From NCBI RefSeq assembly GCF_011045215.1, contig NZ_CP049201.1: 64,000 bases of DNA; one strand, written 5' to 3'. Shown piece after piece: positions 1 through 9,661 of the stretch. Under the pieces are notes generated by a model. It searched no databases. It had not been told where the DNA came from and saw only the letters and a list, made by a program, of their open reading frames with translations. Positions within the stretch are counted from its first letter, which is position 1, and every line of letters starts with the position of its first letter. Both the position numbers and the translations under genes were made by a program. This DNA is from Escherichia coli. GTDB lineage: Bacteria; Pseudomonadota; Gammaproteobacteria; Enterobacterales; Enterobacteriaceae.

Positions 1-56
1 GCACTGCTGGACACCCAGCCCACATCCTGACGCGCTTCGCTTGTCTGCTGCTTCGC

Positions 57-81
57 CGGGGCATAAAAAATTTATGCCCCG
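57..81. other. Perfect inverted repeat / stem-loop (CGGGGCATAAA-aaa-TTTATGCCCCG)
   Basis: 11-bp arms read directly; no adjacent T-tract, so not a canonical intrinsic terminator. Confidence 0.5.
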
Positions 82-560
82 ACTCTCCAGCTCCTGTATC
101 AATCAGATAATTTCACGACGTCTTCCAGCTTATTGCCATCATCGACGGTCAGGCTCTTACGCAATCCCATCGCGCTGACTGCATGTTCTCGCCGCCTCAG
201 TGCGATTTTGACGGCCTTATCTGCCACCCCATCAAATCAAAAGCCCTCACGTCTTTTTCACGCTCAGCGTGAGAAATACAGCCATTCTGTTGTGTTGCTG
301 CGACATCGTTCAGGGGATGCTATTTATCCCCTGAAACGCGGGCTGTTCCCCCGTCACCTGCGCGCAGAAAAAACGCGTTTTTTTGTGCACGCACGGATCC
401 TTGACGGATCCAGCCGCCACGGGGGCCGGAAGGGCAAAAAGTCGTTCAAAAAAATTGTGCAAATTTGTGCACTATCGTGCAGTGTGCATCGTGCTGTTTT
501 CTGCGCAAAAAACGGATGGTAAATTTGTTCGTAGCAGGGAAATTTTAATGAGCGCAAGAC

Positions 561-1091
561 ATGAAGAAAGATTCATATCCTTATTTGATTTGCATGACTG
601 TTTCAGTGCTAGGGATTATTTTCCTCTTTTACTGGTGGAGGGCAGATATCTACAGGATTACATATCTTAATTCGCGTATATCCAATTATTACATCTTGTG
701 TAGTATGGGTATGTCCTTTTTCTTCTCCTTGTTTCTGGTGAAGAGGGGGGTAGTGAAGCAAAGTGGCTGGAAAGGACTGTCGGAATACCTGAAGGTTTAT
801 GCTGGCTCTTGCATTCTTACAGGGATATTCCTGATTATTCCTCTTATGATGGTGACTTATTTTTTACCAGGAGTAACATCATCATATGTTGCACCGTATG
901 AGTATACATCTGGTAGTTCAAGAAGCTGTTCCGGAGCGTTTGTTGATGATCCCGAACTGCATAAAAATATTCTTATTTGCTATCCGTATGGTAACTATGA
1001 ATATGACAATATTATCTATGTTGAAAAGAAAACTAATGCATTGGGCGTTGTTGTGACGTATGCACAGACTGCACGAGACGATGCTGAATAA
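561..1091 (+). CDS. Hypothetical polytopic membrane protein (about 3 predicted TM helices, soluble C-terminal ~80 aa); AT-rich cargo gene
   Basis: 176-aa ORF with three long hydrophobic segments; strongly AT-rich relative to flanking DNA; no family recognised. Confidence 0.5.
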   Translation: MKKDSYPYLICMTVSVLGIIFLFYWWRADIYRITYLNSRISNYYILCSMGMSFFFSLFLVKRGVVKQSGWKGLSEYLKVYAGSCILTGIFLIIPLMMVTYFLPGVTSSYVAPYEYTSGSSRSCSGAFVDDPELHKNILICYPYGNYEYDNIIYVEKKTNALGVVVTYAQTARDDAE

Positions 1092-1282
1092 GATACTACA
1101 GATATAGTCCACTTTTTTGTTTATTTGTCGGGATAAAAACAAATTACCCCGACTCACCATGTATTAATCTTCCGCTTTAAGTTAGTATTTTAGCTGCGCT
1201 GTCCTGCTATTCAGCAAAGCGGCGTACTTTAATGCGTCCTGTGCTTTCTGGAATTTAAGTGCATAGTCAGTGGCGATTTTTT

Positions 1283-1564
1283 CTAGTTCAGCGATTCGGT
1301 TGTTTTTGGTTTCCAGCCAATCAAGTAGCGCCAATACTTCAGGATCCCGACATCCAACACTGTTACGCGTGATTTTTCATAATGTTCGTCGGCAAGAGTT
1401 CGGCCAATTTTGAAATCTCCATCATCACCATAACCGGAGCAGGCATAAACAACCTGTGCTCCAGATATTCGCTGAATTGACATTTCCTCGCCGCAAATAG
1501 GGCATTTCGGTACTGGCACAGGTGAATAACGTTCACGTAATGCCTGATAGTTGATTTCGCTCAT
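1283..1564 (-). CDS. Small zinc-ribbon protein (CPICG...CSG); probably frameshifted, coding signal continues in another frame to 1185
   Basis: 93-aa ORF with CxxC...C motif; protein-like translation continues in a second frame (DPEVLALLDWLETKNNRIAELEK...) past the stop at 1283. Confidence 0.4.
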   Translation of the reverse strand: MSEINYQALRERYSPVPVPKCPICGEEMSIQRISGAQVVYACSGYGDDGDFKIGRTLADEHYEKSRVTVLDVGILKYWRYLIGWKPKTTESLN

Positions 1565-1627
1565 TAAGTCGTTCTCCTTGTTTATGTTCTGAGGTGGAGA
1601 GCAGGGCGAACTCGCCCTGATGTTGTG

Positions 1628-1939
1628 TTATTCAGGAAATAACGCCCGGATATTTCCGGCCATCTGACTGGTTATCTGTGCGGTTGATACTGGCTGTGAT
1701 GCGGGGCGTTCTGTCCTGGTTTGTGTCACTGATAACGCTTCATCATCAGCCCATGCAGCTAGTCGGTAAGCCTCTGCCGGATTCATTTTCAGAAGTGCCA
1801 GCCCGGCCAGAAAAGCCACACGTTGGCCGCTTTTGCGGGCTTCTGGTGTAAGGCTGTCCAGCCAGGCGCATGCTTCGCCTTCGTTCTTGACGGCGGCGGG
1901 CTTCAGATAGAAACTTATCCGTCTGGTTGGTGTCGTCAT
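1628..1939 (-). CDS. parR: ParR (StbB)-like centromere-binding protein
   Basis: 103 aa from Met at 1939; resembles plasmid R1 ParR (from memory); AAGGAG RBS; starts 4 nt after parM stop. Confidence 0.55.
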   Translation of the reverse strand: MTTPTRRISFYLKPAAVKNEGEACAWLDSLTPEARKSGQRVAFLAGLALLKMNPAEAYRLAAWADDEALSVTQTRTERPASQPVSTAQITSQMAGNIRALFPE

Positions 1940-1943
1940 TGGT

Positions 1944-2903
1944 TTACTCCTTGTCCATTGCGTACAGCCCATTAACCAGAGCAAACTGTGGCACCCCGTC
2001 CGCGATGAAAGTCGCATTAACTCCGCAGGCTTCGCGGATAGCGGGTGCCACAATCTCCGCCCCGCCACCGACAACCATCACCCGCCCGTAACCCGAAAAA
2101 ACCGCCAGCGCGCGGATCACGCGTTGTTTCAGTGTTTCTTCCTTTTCACGAATAACCGCCATCAGGCTGGCGTAATGCGCGTCATTGTGGATGTGTTGGC
2201 GCAACCAGGCTTCATCATGGCGATGTTCGATAATGGTATTGGCGATGTGGTGACTGGTACGCATACCGTTAGCGGCCATCACCGACAGCACGGCACCGGC
2301 CATCAGGGAGACGCCTACGTGTGGATCGCAAAACACCTGGCTGATACCTGCCAGTTGCCCCTGAACCTTTGCCACATCCAGCGTGGTTCCGCCTAAATCC
2401 ACAATCAGCAGGGATTCAAACGGACTCATGTCAGCCAGTGCTTTAAAGCCAGCCGGAATGGATTCAGGCATAACCCGCACGTTACGGATAGTGAATGCTT
2501 CGCCGTTCTGGTACTCCACCGGGCGCATAACGTTCGCTTTTTTGCGGTTGATGTTGGCCATGTCCGGCTGTGCGTTTGTGTCGAAATACTCGCTCAGTGG
2601 CAGGGTGACAACCACATCCACCTCCTGTGGCGTGATGCCTGATTTGACCAGCGTGTGATGAATGGCGATTACATTCACATCGCTGTACTGGTATTGCGTG
2701 TCGGTCGTCTGGACAAAGCGATCGCTGACCGGATCAAAACCATAGCGCACGCCATCAAGCATGTAGTTCGCGGGCTGCATGCCACCGAACGGCGCAGATC
2801 ATTCCGACTTGAAGCTGTTCGGGCTGATGGCGTTGCGGCGTTCGCCATTCTCAGTCCATGCCAGCTTGATGTTGGTGGAGCCGTCGTCGATACAAATTTT
2901 CAT
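1944..2903 (-). pseudogene. parM: ParM (StbA)-like actin-type partition ATPase, interrupted by in-frame TGA at 2799-2801
   Basis: N-terminus MKICIDDGSTNIKLAW...NSFKSE then TGA, then in-frame continuation SAPFGGMQPANYML...; strong similarity to R1 ParM (from memory), where this position is Trp. Confidence 0.75.
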
Positions 2904-2932
2904 GTCGCTTTTCCTTATGTTGATTAATTAAT

Positions 2933-3050
2933 CGTTTACGGGATTCTGAAATCCCGTTTTTGCCTGTTTTGTGTGCGCTTCATATATCGCGGCGCGTTTT
3001 TTGCTCATTTACGGGATTTGTGAATCCCGTTTCTGTCTGTTTTTTGTTTC
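2933..3050. repeat. Two copies (2933-2975, 3006-3050) of a ~45-bp repeat, each with palindrome ACGGGATT-N4-AATCCCGT; candidate parC-like centromere/operator
   Basis: Direct repeat with internal inverted repeat, immediately upstream of the parM start. Confidence 0.6.
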
Positions 3051-4533
3051 CACTGGTCAGGCCACCCCGCAGCAGGTCTGCTTTGCGGCGGGCACGTTCA
3101 GTGGTTTCACTGATTCTCTGTGCGTGCTCTGCGTCGCGGATGGCGCGCAGCATGTCAGAAAGCACGGTAACGGGGGTTTTCATGGTGTTCTGGTCCTGCT
3201 GAAGTGTGGATGCCAGACGTGCGGCGGCTTCGAGGTCTGATGCCCCCAGCTGTTCCAGATAGCTGGCGACCGGGTTATGGCGGATCTCCGTGCTGCTTAC
3301 GCCGTGATTACGGCTCAGGCGCTGCCAGAGCTGCGTGATTCGGCTGTCCGGGCGGGTATCCGGTTTGCGTACAATTTCAAATCCCTGCGGTGCAATGATG
3401 CTGCCGTCAACGTACAGGCTGCCGCCCCGTAACAGGTGCTGCATCTGCTGTTCACCGATATGCATGCCGAGAGATTCGGCAGATTCCCGCCATTCTTTAG
3501 CGAGTAATTCGTGGTTATCAGGCAAAGGCCGCTGCTGTTTGCGGCTCTGTGTCCAGCTCTGCATTTCATCACTGCTGTTTTTTGCCTGTTTGTCACGCAG
3601 CGAACGCATCAGCGCCCGGCGTTCGTGCCGTTTCAGTGAGCGCACCCATTCATCCACATCAACGCCGTCAGGAAGCTGCGGCCACGGTGCTGGCCGTTCT
3701 TCCGGCTGTTCTGTCCCGTTGTTGTCCGTTTCCTGTACACGGGGACAGTTATTGCCACGAGTCCAAGGGGCGGCAGGGCCGCTCTGAAGGTCAAAACCAT
3801 TTTCGCGGGAGCTGTCTTCCGCTTCCGGTTTGCGTCTTACCAGCTTCCAGTTATCCGGATGCGTGCATACGCGGGAAGACTCCCCGATGAGCGGCGACCA
3901 GATCCCGTAAATCTGTACACTCTGCTCACCGTAATCGTTCAGTTCATCTGCGAGGTCGTAGGCGGTGCGAATCAGGTAGTCTTTGCGTGGAACAAGCACG
4001 CCACCCTGTTTTTCAATGTAGGTGGCAAAACACCCGGCATCAGCGGCAGCGAGTACCGCATCCATTGCGTCATCCTTCAGCCGTTGCGGGCCTTCCGGGT
4101 TGCGTGCCATCTGGCTGGCAAGGCGGCGCAGTTCACGCCACACCTGACGGGAGGGGATACCAAAGAACTGGAACTGGCGGACCCGGTGAAGGCGCGCCCA
4201 GCCGATGGCGCGTTCCACGCTCTCGGCCATTGATTTTCCGGTTTCGTGGTCAACGCGTGGCTTGCCCGTTTTCGGGTCGATGCCATCCACGGCGCGGCTG
4301 TCCAGGTTCTTTCCGATGTAGGTGGCGATGTAGCTGGTTGGCGTGCCTTTTGAGCCGTCGACGTACTCCGCCTTAAAACGCGGAGTTATGTCATCGCCCA
4401 GCTCGTGGCGGTCTTCCTGAATGGCAATATCGCAGACGTGGGACACGATGGTTTCAATCTCGTCCGGATGTGCAAAGACCATCATATGCCAGTGCACAGT
4501 GCCGTCATGGTGAGGCTCCAGCGGTGTATTCAC
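2980..4533 (-). pseudogene. HUH-motif rolling-circle replication initiator, P2 gpA-like; apparently 5'-truncated
   Basis: 517-aa ORF begins at GTG right at the motif HHDGTVHWHMMVFAHPDE, preceded by in-frame TGA; upstream 300 bp is coding-like in two other frames. Confidence 0.5.
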
Positions 4534-4686
4534 TCAGCGAGGCACACCCGCCAGCAGTGTGATGCGCCAGCATTGCCGCAAATACGGAGGCCGGGGAGTC
4601 GTAATACGCCAGCAGTGATTCGCCATGCGGTGTCAGGCAGCGCAACGCCAGCCCGTGTGGTGTTAAGTCCACGCGGTAGCAGTCGT

Positions 4687-4836
4687 CTACTGTGAAATAA
4701 AGGGTGAGCGTTGTTCTTTAGCTGCCATTTCATCAATGACGGCTCGCTCTTCGAGGGACAGCCGAAGTGCCAGTCTTGGACCTGTGGCGGTGTTACGCGG
4801 AATGCGTGATCTGGTATCGTGAAGAACTTGTTTCAT
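4687..4836 (-). CDS. Small 49-aa ORF divergent from the XRE gene (possible Cox/excisionase-like or RHH regulator)
   Basis: ATG at 4836 to TAG at 4687; below the 60-aa ORF-track cutoff; position equivalent to cox in a P2-type early region. Confidence 0.3.
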   Translation of the reverse strand: MKQVLHDTRSRIPRNTATGPRLALRLSLEERAVIDEMAAKEQRSPFISQ

Positions 4837-4878
4837 AGTGGTATATTGTGATCATCTAATAGCTCATGAAATCATTTT

Positions 4879-4896
4879 GGTATCAAAAAAGATACC
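4879..4896. promoter_or_regulatory. Palindrome GGTATC-N6-GATACC in the divergent promoter region; candidate operator
   Basis: 6-bp perfect inverted arms with A6 spacer between divergent starts at 4836 and 4912. Confidence 0.35.
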
Positions 4897-4911
4897 TGTC
4901 AAGGTTTTTGT

Positions 4912-5316
4912 ATGAAAAATGATATTGGTCAGCGGTTGCGTGAGGAAAGGGAAAGATTGGGGCTTAGTCAAGTTGCTATGAGCGACATTGGTGGAGTCAA
5001 AAAGCTAACTCAGCTTAGATATGAGAAAGGAGATAGCTTTCCTGATGCTGCGTATTTGGCAGCGCTGTCTCGTTTTGGCCTTGATGTTCAGTATGTTGTG
5101 TTGGGAATTCACTCACCTGAAACTTATAACGATGATGAGCAGGAGTTGATTACTCGCTTTCGAGCAGCTTCGTTAGATGTAAAAAACGCGGTGATCGGGG
5201 CTTTAAAAGGTGCGGGCAGTGAAAAGGAAACTCAGCCATCAGGGCGTGAGTTAAATATTTCTGGTGGTAATAACCGTATCGCTGGTCGTGACTATAACGA
5301 AACTAAGGGTAGGTGA
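4912..5316 (+). CDS. XRE-family helix-turn-helix protein (repressor-like) with C-terminal tail carrying an NNRIAGRDYNE motif
   Basis: N-terminal HTH signature (IGQRLREERERLGLSQVAMSDIGGVKKLTQLRYEKG); low GC. Confidence 0.7.
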   Translation: MKNDIGQRLREERERLGLSQVAMSDIGGVKKLTQLRYEKGDSFPDAAYLAALSRFGLDVQYVVLGIHSPETYNDDEQELITRFRAASLDVKNAVIGALKGAGSEKETQPSGRELNISGGNNRIAGRDYNETKGR

Positions 5317-5331
5317 TAGTAGGGAGGTGAC

Positions 5332-5982
5332 ATGGCCGTCAACTCAAACGGTTCAAACAATCGCGTTGCTGGGCGTGATTTTCACGAAAAGAATATTCAG
5401 ATAGAGCGATATGATGGTTCTCATACCGTCAATATCGCAATCCCTTCGAATAATGATGATGACGCTCGCCCTTTGCTTAAGGCACAGCGTAAGGAGCTAA
5501 ATAGCTTGGTTGCTGCTATTGCAGAAGCTAGCAATACTGAAGCGTTTATTATTTGGCAAAAAGTACATGCGGAGATTGGTGTAGCTGGTATTGATGATAT
5601 GACAATAAATCAATATAAAACAGCGGAGAGTTTTCTGCATGCAATGCTTGAGCGATGTAAAGATCATGATGCCTGTAAGACTCTTGTAAGTTTATTACTA
5701 CGTAACAGTGAAGACTGTGGACTTCGACAAAAACTTCTGCGGTATTGCCATATCAATTTCGGTACAGGACGTTTAAACGATCTTACTCGTTCTCAGTTAC
5801 AGTCTGCATTGTCGTGGTTAGAGCAACAATCGGTATCAAGCCACTCAGAGAATTCGACCTTACCAGAAGTTCGCCTTCGTGCTTCAGAATTAATCCGATT
5901 TTATCCAAAAGAAATAATATTCTTTATCTGCGTAGGGGTTTTGGTAGGCGGAGCCATTTCTAGGATGTTTTTTAATTTGTAA
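5332..5982 (+). CDS. Hypothetical protein, cytoplasmic domain plus single C-terminal transmembrane anchor; N-terminus repeats the NNRVAGRDFHE motif
   Basis: 216 aa; strong RBS AGGGAGGTGA 5 nt upstream; C-terminal hydrophobic segment IIFFICVGVLVGGAI; low GC. Confidence 0.6.
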   Translation: MAVNSNGSNNRVAGRDFHEKNIQIERYDGSHTVNIAIPSNNDDDARPLLKAQRKELNSLVAAIAEASNTEAFIIWQKVHAEIGVAGIDDMTINQYKTAESFLHAMLERCKDHDACKTLVSLLLRNSEDCGLRQKLLRYCHINFGTGRLNDLTRSQLQSALSWLEQQSVSSHSENSTLPEVRLRASELIRFYPKEIIFFICVGVLVGGAISRMFFNL

Positions 5983-6011: not shown

Positions 6012-6359
6012 ATGAAAGTAAAAAAGGTTCAACTATTAGTTGCTTTTTTATCTATGTTTTCTTTTTCCGCCGTCGCAATGCCTTTTAAAACTATTGAACG
6101 TGAGAGTTTCAATGGAGTATGGCCATTTAATACAGATGAGGTTCAATTGCAGTGTCTTGATGGTAATCCTTATGTGATGAATTTTGACGATAATAAGTTA
6201 TATGCGCTTACAGGTTTGGCTCGAATAAAAGGTAAAACATTTGGTGCGTTACCGTTAGATAACAATAATCCATTTTGGCTAGATAATGATGCCGCCCCAG
6301 GGTTAAAAAAGAATCTGGGGGACGTCACTAAGGCTGCATTTGATTTATGTGATAAGTAA
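6012..6359 (+). CDS. Small secreted/periplasmic protein with signal peptide (tentatively DUF2511/YebY-like)
   Basis: 115 aa; N-terminal signal peptide MKVKKVQLLVAFLSMFSFSAVA; family assignment from memory only. Confidence 0.55.
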   Translation: MKVKKVQLLVAFLSMFSFSAVAMPFKTIERESFNGVWPFNTDEVQLQCLDGNPYVMNFDDNKLYALTGLARIKGKTFGALPLDNNNPFWLDNDAAPGLKKNLGDVTKAAFDLCDK

Positions 6360-6364
6360 CAAAA

Positions 6365-7366
6365 ATGTCGGTTCGTAAAACTCCATCAGGTAAATGGCTT
6401 TGCGAATGTTATCCCTACGGAGCATCGGGAAAACGCATTCGTAAACAGTTTGCGACAAAAAGTGAGGCGCTCTCTTATGAGCGCCGTTTAATGAATAGTA
6501 GAGTTGGAGACGAGTTTCAAGATGGTTCTGGTCCTCGTCTTTCTGAGTTGATTGCTCGTTGGTTTGAGATGTACGGAAAAACCTTGTCCTCTGGTGCAGA
6601 GCGCAAAGTCAAACTTGAGGCGATTTGTTCTAGGCTGGGAGATCCATTTGCTTCTCAGTTTGACAAAAATATGTTTGCTACTTATCGGGAAAGAAGGCTA
6701 TCAGGAGAATGGAATCCCAAGGGGAAGAAAAAACTTAGTGAAGCAACCGTTAATCGCGAGCAGTCATATCTACATGCTGTTTTTGCCGAACTGAAGCGCC
6801 TTGGGGAGTGGTCTGGTGAAAACCCCCTGACTGGAATTCGCAAGTTTCGTGAGGAAGAAAAGGAGCTGGCGTTTCTGTATGTAGATGAGATTGAACGCCT
6901 TTTGATTGCGTGTGATGATTCACGGAATAAAGATTTGGGGGTTGTTGTCCGTATTGGGCTTGCGACTGGTGCTCGGTGGAGTGAAGCAGAAGGATTAAAG
7001 CAATCTCAAGTACTGCCCGGTCGAATCACATTTGTTAAAACTAAAGGAAAGAAGAACCGCACTGTACCGATTTCACCTCAATTGCAGGCTATGCTTCCTA
7101 AAAAACGAGGAGCGCTATTTTCACCATGTTATGAGGCTTTTGACGCTGCAATTAAGAGAGCGAAGATAGAGCTCCCTGATGGGCAATTAACTCATGTGCT
7201 ACGTCACACGTTTGCTAGTCATTTTATGATGCGGGGCGGAAATATTCTTGTGTTGCAAAAAATACTGGGGCATAGCGATATAAAAATGACTATGCGTTAT
7301 GCGCATTTTGCTCCGGGTCATTTAGAGGCTGCTGTTGAATTAAACCCTTTTGACAATAGAGGGTAA
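6365..7366 (+). CDS. int: Tyrosine recombinase, P2-type phage integrase
   Basis: 333 aa; motifs LATGARWSEA, ITFVKTKGKKNRTVPIS, HVLRHTFASHFMMRGGNILVLQKILGH, MRYAHF closely match P2 Int (from memory). Confidence 0.9.
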   Translation: MSVRKTPSGKWLCECYPYGASGKRIRKQFATKSEALSYERRLMNSRVGDEFQDGSGPRLSELIARWFEMYGKTLSSGAERKVKLEAICSRLGDPFASQFDKNMFATYRERRLSGEWNPKGKKKLSEATVNREQSYLHAVFAELKRLGEWSGENPLTGIRKFREEEKELAFLYVDEIERLLIACDDSRNKDLGVVVRIGLATGARWSEAEGLKQSQVLPGRITFVKTKGKKNRTVPISPQLQAMLPKKRGALFSPCYEAFDAAIKRAKIELPDGQLTHVLRHTFASHFMMRGGNILVLQKILGHSDIKMTMRYAHFAPGHLEAAVELNPFDNRG

Positions 7367-7472
7367 AAAGTGGCGATAAAAAGTGACAATAGATTCAAAT
7401 GGCGTCGTATAGAGCTATTTGCAAAGTTAATAAAATCATAAGGTTATGATTTATAAATGGTGGTTGATAGTT

Positions 7473-7527
7473 TTTAAAATCCCTCGGCGTTCGCGCTGTG
7501 CGGGTTCAAGTCCCGCTCCGGGTACCA
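7473..7527 (+). other. leuZ: 3' ~55 nt of tRNA-Leu (leuZ) ending in CCA: attachment-site core; not an intact tRNA
   Basis: TTTAAAATCCCTCGGCGTTCGCGCTGTGCGGGTTCAAGTCCCGCTCCGGGTACCA matches the leuZ 3' part; upstream sequence only partly tRNA-like, no acceptor-stem 5' strand. Confidence 0.8.
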
Positions 7528-7570
7528 TGGGAAAGATAAGAATAAAATCAAAGCAATAAGCAGTGTCGTG

Positions 7571-7596
7571 AAACCACCTTCGGGTGGTTTTTTTGT
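7571..7596 (+). terminator. Intrinsic terminator of the leuZ tRNA operon
   Basis: AAACCACC-TTCG-GGTGGTTT stem followed by T-run. Confidence 0.8.
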
Positions 7597-7722
7597 GCCT
7601 GCAACTTGTCGTTACACCCTCCTTAATTTTTAATCACCGGCAAAGCCACTCAAAAAGTATCTCTGATACGGACCGGCATGTAAGATAGGTGCTGGCGAGT
7701 TGAGATCCACAAGGAAAAGCGT

Positions 7723-8388
7723 ATGAAAACGGGACCGTTAAACGAAAGTGAGTTGGAATGGCTGGACGATATTCTGACCAAATACAACACTGACCACGCC
7801 ATCCTTGATGTGGCGGAGCTGGACGGTTTATTGACGGCAGTGTTGAGTTCTCCGCAAGAGATTGAACCGGCACAGTGGCTGGTTGCCGTGTGGGGTGGGG
7901 CTGACTATGTGCCGCGCTGGGCGTCAGAGAAAGAGATGACGCGCTTTATGAACCTGGCTTTTCAACATATGGCCGATACCGCAGAGCGTCTGAACGAATT
8001 CCCGGAGCAGTTTGAGCCGTTATTCGGCTTGCGAGAAGTTGATGGCAGCGAGCTGACGATTGTTGAGGAGTGGTGCTTTGGCTATATGCGGGGCGTGGCA
8101 CTTTCTGACTGGTCAACATTGCCCGATTCGTTAAAACCAGCGCTGGAGGCGATAGCGCTGCACGGTACTGAGGAAAACTTCGAGCGGGTAGAGAAGATGT
8201 CGCCAGAAGCGTTTGAAGAGAGCGTAGATGCCATTCGACTGGCGGCGCTTGATTTACATGCATACTGGATGGCGCATCCGCAGGAAAAAGCTGTTCAGCA
8301 ACCGATCAAAGCAGAAGAGAAACCGGGGCGTAACGATCCTTGTCCGTGCGGCAGTGGTAAGAAATTTAAGCAGTGCTGCCTGCATTAA
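7723..8388 (+). CDS. yecA: UPF0149 protein YecA with C-terminal SEC-C zinc motif
   Basis: 221 aa; C-terminal [13 protein letters not shown]; K-12 synteny. Confidence 0.9.
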
Positions 8389-8449
8389 GAAGTCAAATTG
8401 GGTGTCAGCGTTAATTCTGGCACCCAATAAGGAATTTGAGGCTATCTAA

Positions 8450-9661
8450 TCACCCCACTTCTGGTAACAACCCTGCCGCAATCAAAAATTGCACGCCAAT
8501 CACAGCAATACCACAGAGAAACACCACCACCAGCGCCGGACGACCACCTTTGACCCGGTAACCCGCTTGAGGATTGTGCCTTCTGCTTTGCCAGGTCAAC
8601 AGCGAAGGGATAATCAATGCCAGTACCGCCAGCGCCACACCGGCGTAACCCAGCGCCATCACAAATCCTCGTGGATAAAACAGTGCAAACGCCAACGGCG
8701 GCAGAAAGGTAATTGCTCCAGTTTGCAATCGTCCACCAACGGTATTTGAACGCTGAAACAAATCAGCCAGATAATCAAATAAGCCTAACGCAACGCCGAG
8801 AAATGACGTGGCGAGGGCTAAATCAGCAAATAAATGCACTGCCAGCTCAACATGCGGAGAGGCCACCATTTCGCGTAACGCCTGTAACAGCCCGTTTAAT
8901 CCGGCATGATTAGCCAGCAATCCCATAAAGGTTGTTGAATCAATGCTGCCAAGCGTCGCCACCTGCCAGAAAATATATGCCACCAGGGGGATCGCACTAC
9001 CGATTATAAACACCCAGCGTAGCTTACGAATGTTGCCATCCATATAGCTGACAATACTCGGCACGCTACCGTGAAAACCAAACGACGTAAAAATCACCGG
9101 GATTGCAGACAGTGCCAGCCCCTGTTGCAACGGCAGGGTTAAAAGATTCACTTTGTGAATATGCGGTAGCAGCAATACCAACATCACCACCAAAAAAATA
9201 ATTTTGGCGCTGAACAGAAAACGGTTAAATAAATCGACCAGCGATGTTCCAACACAAACCACGCCACCGGCAACAAAAGTGAACAACAGCACGCCAGCGG
9301 TTGCCGACATTGAAATACCTGTCCAGTCGCTGATGCTGGAGGCCAACAATTCACCGGCACCGCTGATGTATGCCGCAGTCAGAGCATACATTAAGAACAT
9401 CATACTGAAGCCCGTCAGCCATTGACCGTAGCGTCCCAGATAGCGTTTTGCCAGCGTGCCCAGACCGGTATCTGCCGGAACATGCTGGTACACCTCCAGC
9501 AGTAATAGCGCCGTGTAGCACATCAACGCCCAAAGCCCAATCAACAAGATTAACGTAACGCTAAAACCAACACCGGCCGCAGCCAGCGGCATTGCCAGCA
9601 TGCCTGCGCCAATTGTGGTTCCCGCCACGATAAAAACACTTCCCAGGGTTCTGTTTTTCAC
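8450..9661 (-). CDS. tyrP: Tyrosine-specific transport protein
   Basis: 403 aa polytopic permease; synteny. Confidence 0.95.

Follow-up and report, generated by a model that had tools for sequence, protein, structure and literature searches.

Two adjacent genes of an Escherichia coli prophage raise the question of why a single short peptide should stand at the very end of a candidate phage repressor and again at the very start of the protein encoded by the next gene. The two genes lie in a 64,000-nucleotide stretch of contig NZ_CP049201.1 (assembly GCF_011045215.1), which we call the window. The first encodes an XRE-family helix-turn-helix (HTH) protein and the second a small protein that has a membrane anchor at its C-terminus, referred to below as the partner. 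We show here that the peptide is conserved in both protein families and co-varies between them from one phage lineage to another. We further propose that the two genes are descended from a one-piece repressor whose junction peptide was kept on both halves. The two facing peptides suggest a means, apparently not described before, by which a membrane protein could hold or control the master switch of a phage.

In the window, the XRE protein ends ...GRELNISGGNNRIAGRDYNETKGR (also given as ...ELNISGGNNRIAGRDYNETKGR); its copy of the peptide, LNISGGNNRIAGRDYNE, is followed by TKGR and the stop codon. The partner begins MAVNSNGSNNRVAGRDFHEKN, within which the second copy reads VNSNGSNNRVAGRDFHE. The copies are identical at 10 of 17 residues and reach a Smith–Waterman score of 62 with BLOSUM62, whereas 5000 shuffles of the first 40 residues of the partner gave a mean of 21.5 and a maximum of 45. 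Chance similarity is thus ruled out, as none of the shuffles attained the observed score and as, in the set of 30 loci described below, other segments of the same proteins scored 16–17 against 48.9 for the cognate motifs. The DNA of the 17 motif codons is 59% identical. Where an identical residue has degenerate codons, the two copies in the window use the same codon at 4 of 10 positions, with 4.2 expected from codon usage; over 28 loci the corresponding figures are 133 of 265 and 117. This chance-level codon agreement rules out a recent duplication or gene conversion, and DNA homogenisation is therefore not the cause of the likeness. The original prediction, made from the bare sequence of the window, had placed a shared peptide at these two termini, pointed to its synonymous DNA divergence and taken the divergence as a sign of selection on the peptide rather than of recent duplication. 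Its location and its description of the divergence hold. Selection at the level of the peptide is likewise upheld, by conservation of the motif in both families when homologues of both proteins are aligned, by co-variation between lineages and by the state of the synonymous sites.

For the comparison across loci, sequences were fetched through the XRE protein only, blind to its neighbour; exact look-up supplied 4 of them, species-representative genomes 80 and viral contigs a further 80. At least 499 loci were confirmed in the scan of viral contigs by itself. The tail of the repressor matches the N-terminus of the downstream protein in about 60 non-redundant loci of P2-like and Mu-like prophages from gamma- and betaproteobacteria, and the module was also found in phages of Pseudomonas, Burkholderia (BcepMu gp17/gp18), Pectobacterium, Gilliamella, Pasteurellaceae and others. 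Twenty-five partner homologues with 58–83% identity, from Escherichia, Klebsiella, Serratia, Erwinia, Enterobacter and others, all start with M.VNS.G..NR.AGRD(F/Y).E, in which S5, G7, N10, R11, G14, D16 and E19 are invariant, and they share a second conserved stretch, IQI..(F/Y)DG.HT.NIAIPS, after the motif. On the other side of the junction, XRE homologues down to about 55% identity end with (V/I)N(V/I)SGxGNRxAGRD(Y/F)(N/H)E followed by.KK, and conservation of this tail holds for the enterobacterial subfamily.

More distant XRE proteins carry other G/N/Q-rich tails, and the downstream N-termini usually match them. Thus, a Pectobacterium locus has QIFNGDISGQFAGNQIIN in the tail and QEFNGTAQGQFSSRDIIN in the partner, and P. 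aeruginosa has QQFNGPVGTVTSGDVVN and QQFHDRVHQVAAGDIKN. The corresponding pairs are QVFHGQVGQ and QIFRGQVGQ in Bordetella, MNIQGDGNVQIGG and MHIDGSDNIQVGG in Testudinibacter, GDINGIMAGRD and GGVHGVLAGRD in Rhodocyclaceae, SVNVSAPGGHAAGRDM and SKKVEASEGYAAGRDI in Stutzerimonas, and GQVIQGNV..VFNVGG and GQVVQGSV..VLNIGG in Stenotrophomonas. A metagenome bin has SSGTGAIHIGG facing SSGSGAVHMGH, and in Burkholderia phage BcepMu the tail of gp17, EQVFHGSVGQAV, faces KQEFNKPVGQAI in gp18. Two pseudo-repeats of the motif are present in the tails of loci L028 and L040 and in the partners P0396, L022:3403-4020 and L168:2414-3196 (BcepMu gp18); examples are MKIEGNHNQQ...MEIKGDNNVQ and NRTAGRNYYE...NNVAGRDVIH. 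Some tails stand without a matching neighbour, namely those of L169 (Pseudomonas phage Komp_PAO1_1), L021, L158, L161, L162 and L070; these tails are G/N-rich and typical.

The correspondence between tail and N-terminus was quantified by permutation. Over 30 pairs the mean cognate score was 48.9 against 29.0±2.5 for permuted pairs, a value that 0 of 100,000 permutations reached, and in 11 loci the tail ranked its own partner first of the 30. The result held when representatives with less than 80% identity in the HTH were used (cognate 47.8, permuted 27.9, 0 of 20,000 permutations). It also held within the class of QxFHG motifs (47.4 and 38.0; 0 of 20,000) and within the class termed "other" (36.6 and 23.9; 0 of 20,000). 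For AGRD motifs, the class of the window's pair, the cognate mean was 58.3 and the permuted mean 56.1, and 113 of 20,000 permutations reached the cognate value.

We then considered what the motif is attached to. The partner is a member of PHROG family phrog_5825, which has no function assigned there. Immediately after the motif, the conserved segment KNIQIERYDGSHTVNIAIPS has I24, D28, T32, N34, A36, I37 and P38 invariant, and its predicted local distance difference test (pLDDT) values in AlphaFold2 run from below 50 to about 63. The body that follows was matched by the NCBIfam Flk model NF007987 over residues 38–168 (E = 6.4e-15). Precomputed assignments place PF27202 (Flk_N) on nearly all partner homologues, and the installed copy of Pfam-A gave no match to the partner of the window. 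The partner is no equivalog of Flk: it scores 55.3 bits against a cut-off of 353, has one copy of the domain and lies in a prophage. Its C-terminal tail anchor, IIFFICVGVLVGGAISRMFF, coincides with a hydropathy window at residues 193–209 (mean 2.1) and is a helix in the AlphaFold2 model. We infer that the body and the N-terminal motif are cytoplasmic, where the repressor is. Among the partners as a whole there are at least three kinds: one with a Flk_N body and a tail anchor, one of 140–175 amino acids with two internal transmembrane segments, and an ORF6C-like one that is soluble. Every one of these bears the cognate N-terminal motif, which makes a receptor site in the partner body unlikely.

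The XRE protein consists of a Cro/C1-type helix-turn-helix DNA-binding domain (about residues 1–66), a helical segment (about residues 74–102) and a tail modelled with low confidence (pLDDT < 50). It occupies the position of the lysis/lysogeny switch, beside the integrase and facing the early region of a P2-like prophage. In the Pectobacterium, Gilliamella, Pseudomonas and BcepMu loci, the pair faces the Ner-like, transposase and MuB-like genes of transposable phages. Relatives are annotated as "cro/cI repressor" (BcepMu gp17), "immunity repressor" (phage Mana) and "CI-like repressor" (Gregale). Domain searches detected no S24 or other peptidase domain in either the XRE protein or the partner, and the bodies are all-helical in AlphaFold2. 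The XRE protein is therefore not a self-cleaving repressor of the LexA/CI type, even though its motif contains Ala-Gly. Two features of Pseudomonas phage Fc02 agree with the XRE protein of locus L004: the gene order (repressor, one gene, lysis genes) and the residue number of the temperature-sensitive mutation G64E. A link to the experimentally studied repressor RepC and gene e4 of that phage (PMC9936078) is not used here, as the DNA and the partner of L004 had no match in the phage collection.

The origin of the arrangement was indicated by repressors in which both halves are found in one polypeptide. The family phrog_17822 (267 positions) matches the window XRE protein at positions 5–88 and the soluble Stutzerimonas partner of locus L052 at positions 94–264. 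One of its members is the 267-amino-acid "CI-like repressor" of Pseudomonas phage Gregale (Casadabanvirus), whose first 67 residues, the HTH, are 39% identical to the window XRE protein and whose residues 125–264 are 33% identical to the L052 partner (143 residues). Two hundred relatives of the Gregale repressor, about 265 amino acids long, carry an HTH together with ORF6C (PF10552). Profile–profile alignment extends this kinship to the Flk_N-type partners: with a diverse set of them, hhalign aligned partner residues 41–165 with Gregale residues 125–262 (97.1%, E = 5e-11), and with a narrower pair of alignments it gave 55.7%. A search of 1.84 billion representative proteins with the partner profile returned 253 clusters only, among them true Flk proteins with two or three copies of the domain and the one-piece XRE–linker–domain proteins P0498 and P0508. 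In the one-piece proteins, the HTH is joined to the C-terminal domain by a conserved linker rich in G, N and V, P.V.VS.GG.ANVVQFAQ.GSTVN, which lies at the position that corresponds to the junction of the split pair. By these alignments, the pair looks like a one-piece repressor that split long ago and was maintained in two parts, with the junction peptide kept on both halves. The original prediction would have counted as refuted had the two genes been one ancestral gene parted by a recent nonsense mutation, with no independent use of a ribosome-binding site. This applies in part, as the genes match the halves of a one-piece repressor, but there is no recent nonsense mutation: the split is of old date, it is conserved over a wide range of loci, and a ribosome-binding site of its own precedes the second gene. 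The split origin therefore does not make the motif trivial.

Several further observations concern these families. Split XRE proteins keep the helical segment DEQELLxxYRxAPLAVKAAALAAL (residues 74–102; 5131–5217 in the window), which has no counterpart in the one-piece repressors and may be a dimerisation element that replaces the lost C-terminal domain. Membrane-anchored one-piece versions seem to exist, in that P0297 and P0316 (alignment A4) are XRE–linker–ORF6C proteins with long C-terminal hydrophobic extensions. The N-domain of Flk is homologous to the partner body (P0407, P0498, P0508) and, through the partner, to the ORF6C domain of one-piece Mu-like repressors; the flagellar regulator Flk may accordingly be a domesticated and duplicated phage-repressor domain.

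Structure prediction was carried out on a fusion of the XRE protein and the partner through a (G4S)6 linker, with 31 paired sequences. The model contains the HTH and two more helices of the XRE protein at pLDDT 80–93, a five-helix partner body at about 96 and the helix of the tail anchor, and falls below 50 at XRE residues 101–134 and partner residues 1–35. A model of the one-piece repressor from 112 sequences has both domains confident and the linker, residues 84–109, below 50. Segments that are conserved and yet modelled with low confidence would suit elements that fold only on association. In composition, the motifs are enriched in G (2.5-fold), N (3.8-fold) and V (1.35-fold) and depleted in L (0.08-fold), P (0.24-fold) and K (0.47-fold), and Q (1.15-fold) and I (1.02-fold) show no enrichment. 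Such a composition is typical of formers of strands and beta-helices and would favour strand pairing.

These properties lead us to a reading that we consider about as probable as all others together, in which the membrane protein captures the repressor tail by pairing of motif with motif and in this way tethers or regulates the repressor. The XRE protein would be the DNA-binding half of a two-piece phage immunity module, and the next gene would supply a tail-anchored inner-membrane protein with a cytoplasmic helical body of the Flk_N/ORF6C type. The old split would have left a strand-prone, G/N-rich junction peptide of about 17–20 residues on the C-terminus of the repressor and on the N-terminus of the partner. 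The two copies would bind like with like, through beta-strands that pair between molecules only when these associate and that would do so in register, as in beta-zippers and cross-beta assemblies. On the cytoplasmic side of the membrane, the co-transcribed partner would catch the repressor tail, and this capture could tether the repressor, buffer it or, on some signal, inactivate it. The data are compatible with the suggestion of the original prediction that the motif could be a shared docking element, and the form of it that we prefer is one in which the two copies dock on each other. A more far-reaching variant is a prion-like cross-beta switch, in which the partner would cluster on some membrane or infection signal and its motifs would form an amyloid-like template for the repressor tails, pulling the repressor off the DNA into an assembly at the membrane; we think this unlikely. 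If it were true, it would provide RecA-independent, all-or-none induction or superinfection control in P2-like and Mu-like prophages, and amyloid signalling, beyond its part in cell-death effectors, would also govern transcription in prophages that are common among enterobacteria.

A number of points weigh against capture by motif pairing. The AlphaFold2 model of the fusion predicts no contact between the two copies or of either copy with either folded domain, a result that does not amount to disproof. Fine-scale co-variation is weak in the AGRD class, where 9 representatives gave p~0.055, and the signal between classes could be due in part to different one-piece ancestors that split independently and then underwent purifying selection in parallel. 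In a minority of loci (Komp_PAO1_1, Janthinobacterium and Acidovorax) a matching downstream N-terminus is absent. Similarity of the one-piece linker to the split motifs is marginal, at 30.7 against about 27±4 for shuffled sequences; a homology in sequence between linker and motif was therefore dropped, and we claim equal position and composition only. The XRE protein is a candidate immunity repressor by homology, gene position and annotations of relatives. Finally, the prophage of the window is a degraded remnant.

By established principles rather than by the output of any tool, partners that are similar rather than complementary are the expected signature either of like-with-like pairing or of competition for one site. 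In the competitive case, which would resemble SinI and SinR and which we hold to be rather doubtful, the tail would normally bind a site on the repressor in the service of oligomerisation, cooperativity or auto-inhibition. The N-terminus of the partner would compete for that site, making the partner a membrane-bound anti-repressor or co-repressor, and the copies would be alike through their one shared receptor. Tails that persist without a partner point to a partner-independent role of this kind, for example in oligomerisation within the repressor, and the occurrence of the motif on unrelated partner bodies would place the receptor with the XRE protein. Adjacent genes with a common interaction segment have a precedent in SinR/SinI (PMC3163267), and SinR (1b0n) was among the structural neighbours of the XRE domain in fold searches that returned HTH neighbours only. 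However, AlphaFold2 docked neither copy on the XRE core. That core is far more conserved than the tail, with no co-varying receptor surface evident, and the motif is G/N-rich and modelled free of helix at low confidence, unlike the helical hooks of SinR and SinI. Alternatively, the two copies might be a shared degron, cleavage site or docking site for some third factor, be it a protease of host or phage, a chaperone, or a machine for targeting or degradation. The motif is terminal in both proteins, with pLDDT below 50, and in the window it contains Ala-Gly, which is the bond cut in LexA and CI. Nevertheless, we find a third factor quite improbable. A single host genus can have several classes of motif (Pseudomonas at least three, Pectobacterium both AGRD and FNG..GQF), and yet each pair matches internally, which a conserved host factor would not demand. 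Neither protein has a peptidase domain, many classes lack Ala-Gly, and no third gene is constant; the cleavage site offered by the original prediction as an alternative to docking thus found no support.

The two remaining explanations dispense with an interaction of this kind or assign it to another system. The junction might have been duplicated at the split and the two copies conserved for separate reasons, such as local folding or the context of translation initiation. The split origin is well supported, independent splits of differing linkers could yield look-alike pairs specific to each lineage, and co-variation in the AGRD class is weak. Such a leftover is, however, very unlikely: the synonymous sites are saturated, as expected of old copies, and yet the copies are still about 60% identical in protein sequence. 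It would also have to accommodate the significant co-variation within the QxFHG and "other" classes, residues that are invariant across genera, and the presence of the motif on partner bodies that are not homologous. Least probable, in our estimate, is a toxin–antitoxin or abortive-infection pair, with the XRE protein as antitoxin, the membrane protein as toxin and the motif as the interface of neutralisation. The XRE protein has a weak, sub-threshold likeness to the antitoxins MqsA, HipB and Y4mF, and a small membrane protein encoded downstream in an operon expressed from a prophage would be in keeping with such a pair. Against it, the partner had no match to any defence system in PADLOC, and the XRE gene is at the position of an immunity repressor, facing Ner-like and transposase genes in Mu-like loci and an early operon (cox-like gene, replication endonuclease) in the intact P2-like relative. 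The partner body, moreover, is homologous to the C-terminal domain of repressors and to Flk, and neither of these is known as a toxin.

The locus in which the pair is found is set out in Table 1. The XRE open reading frame (ORF) ends with three stop codons in a row, TGA TAG TAG (5314–5322), followed by a strong Shine–Dalgarno sequence, GGAGGTG (5323–5329), 2 nucleotides before the partner ATG at 5332. The XRE and partner ORFs are in the same reading frame, 420 nucleotides apart. The frame is common to both ORFs in 14 of 30 related loci, with gaps from −8 to +108 nucleotides, and, since it is not constant, the relation is probably incidental and not a recoding signal. A fusion of the two ORFs by read-through or frameshifting is ruled out by the three stops and the variable frame relation. 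Upstream of the XRE gene, the perfect inverted repeat at 4879–4896 overlaps the minus-strand TTGACA, and TGGTAT occurs again 40 nucleotides off (4839–4844); judged from the sequence, the repeat is a candidate operator for the XRE protein.

Downstream, the gene order is XRE, partner, a DUF2511 gene and the tyrosine integrase, followed by the chromosomal genes yecA (7723), tyrP and ftnA. This four-gene stretch is present in 520 of 5426 complete E. coli genomes, in 503 of them at 80% coverage or more. The third gene is a different one in loci L002–L005 and in every other lineage examined, so that the DUF2511 gene is no constant part of the module and only the pair is constant. The element itself is a P2-like prophage. 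A closely related intact copy (L001, NZ_AP022207 2179288–2198888) carries a gene for a portal protein along with ParM, a gene for a replication endonuclease and a cox-like DNA-binding gene, and in comparison with it about 3.4 kb of the early region is missing from the window (1–4706). The missing parts are L001 5285–6647, inside the replication endonuclease gene, and 6834–8899, with small early genes including the cox-like DNA-binding gene. Window positions 483–1628, with an ORF for a 176-amino-acid membrane protein at 561–1091, stand where L001 has a DUF3800 gene.

Table 1 Features of the repressor–partner locus, in positions of the window
Feature	Position	Strand	Details
Divergent control region 5′ of the XRE gene	4837..4911	.	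Read from sequence
Promoter-like site	4902-4874	-	TTGACA-17-CAAAAT
Perfect inverted repeat	4879-4896		GGTATC-N6-GATACC; 16 nucleotides upstream of the XRE start codon
XRE-family HTH protein	4912..5316	+	134 amino acids; candidate immunity repressor of P2-like prophage
Motif copy 1, XRE tail	5251..5301	+	Residues 114-130
Gene junction	5314..5331	+	TGA TAG TAG GGAGGTGAC ATG; read from sequence
Partner	5332..5982	+	216 amino acids; N-terminal motif, strand-prone segment, Flk_N/ORF6C-like helical body, C-terminal tail anchor
Motif copy 2, partner N-terminus	5338..5388	+	Residues 3-19
Conserved segment between motif and helical body	5389..5448	+	Residues 20-39
Helical body	5452..5826	+	Residues 41-165; Pfam Flk_N (PF27202)
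C-terminal hydrophobic tail anchor	5914..5973	+	About residues 195-214
DUF2511 gene, secreted/lipoprotein-like	6012..6359	+	Signal-peptide-like N-terminus; phrog_2950, function not assigned
Tyrosine integrase of the prophage	6365..7366	+	

P2-like and Mu-like phages without a self-cleaving repressor must detect by another route that it is time to leave lysogeny, and in most cases this route is not known. If the two peptides bind each other, they would connect a membrane protein to a transcription switch in a simple and modular manner, with specificity set by a tag of 17–20 residues that could be moved to other proteins by engineering. The module also offers a first functional lead for the Flk_N/ORF6C domain, for the linker of one-piece Mu-like repressors and for the families phrog_5825 and phrog_17822. 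In addition, it provides a tractable E. coli test case for whether motifs of the amyloid-signalling type work outside cell-death systems. In the full text available from PMC and bioRxiv, the coverage of which is incomplete, we found no motif pair shared by a repressor and its neighbour and no XRE protein among amyloid-signalling architectures.

The known systems closest in layout are the amyloid signalling motifs, which include those of fungal HET-S/NWD2, the bacterial BASS1–10 (Dyrka et al., bioRxiv 10.1101/2020.01.06.895854) and BASS11 of E. coli Bab/Agp (bioRxiv 10.1101/2024.11.07.622273). As in those pairs, a motif (there of about 20–25 residues) is found at the C-terminus of the protein of the first gene and at the N-terminus of the next; the motifs form lineage-specific families with an excess of G and N and a deficit of K, P and L, and some members have two pseudo-repeats, as HET-s-type motifs do. 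The BASS motif is about 25 residues long, G/N/Q-rich and of hydrophobic pattern, whereas the phage motif has 17–20 residues and no enrichment of Q and I. Unlike in BASS and FASS systems, the protein with the C-terminal motif is an XRE DNA-binding repressor and not one with a pore-forming Bell or HeLo domain, and its counterpart with the N-terminal motif is a small Flk_N/ORF6C protein with a tail anchor and not an NLR/STAND or TPR sensor. The pair, moreover, belongs to phage immunity regions of unicellular proteobacteria, and fibril formation or templating would here be hypothetical.

Other comparisons are with regulators of repressors. In Bacillus subtilis SinR/SinI (PMC3163267; PDB 1b0n), a small protein controls a repressor through a shared segment that is the interaction surface, and there too the homologous segment lies outside the HTH of an XRE-type repressor and recurs in the protein that the adjacent gene encodes. 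That segment, however, is a helix pair and the antagonist is soluble and encoded upstream, whereas the segment described here is G/N-rich and its bearer is membrane-anchored and encoded downstream in the same operon. Phage 434 Hex (PMC3564112) is a second protein made from the repressor mRNA in the lysogen, and it modulates inactivation of the repressor. The proteins are unrelated to those of the present pair, Hex acts on RecA-mediated autocleavage, and no shared terminal motif is reported for it. The one-piece XRE–linker–ORF6C repressors (Gregale, phrog_17822) share with the pair a homologous HTH, a homologous C-terminal helical domain and a G/N/V-rich linker modelled as disordered, but they are single polypeptides with one linker and mostly without a membrane anchor. 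Flk has in common with the partner the Flk_N domain, the cytoplasmic orientation and the C-terminal membrane tail anchor; it differs in its length of about 330 amino acids, its two or three copies of the domain, its chromosomal gene, its action on the flagellar export gate and its lack of the N-terminal motif. The module thus fits neither the BASS/FASS systems nor SinR/SinI, and is best described as a proposed coupling of adjacent gene products by a shared terminal motif, built on a split phage repressor.

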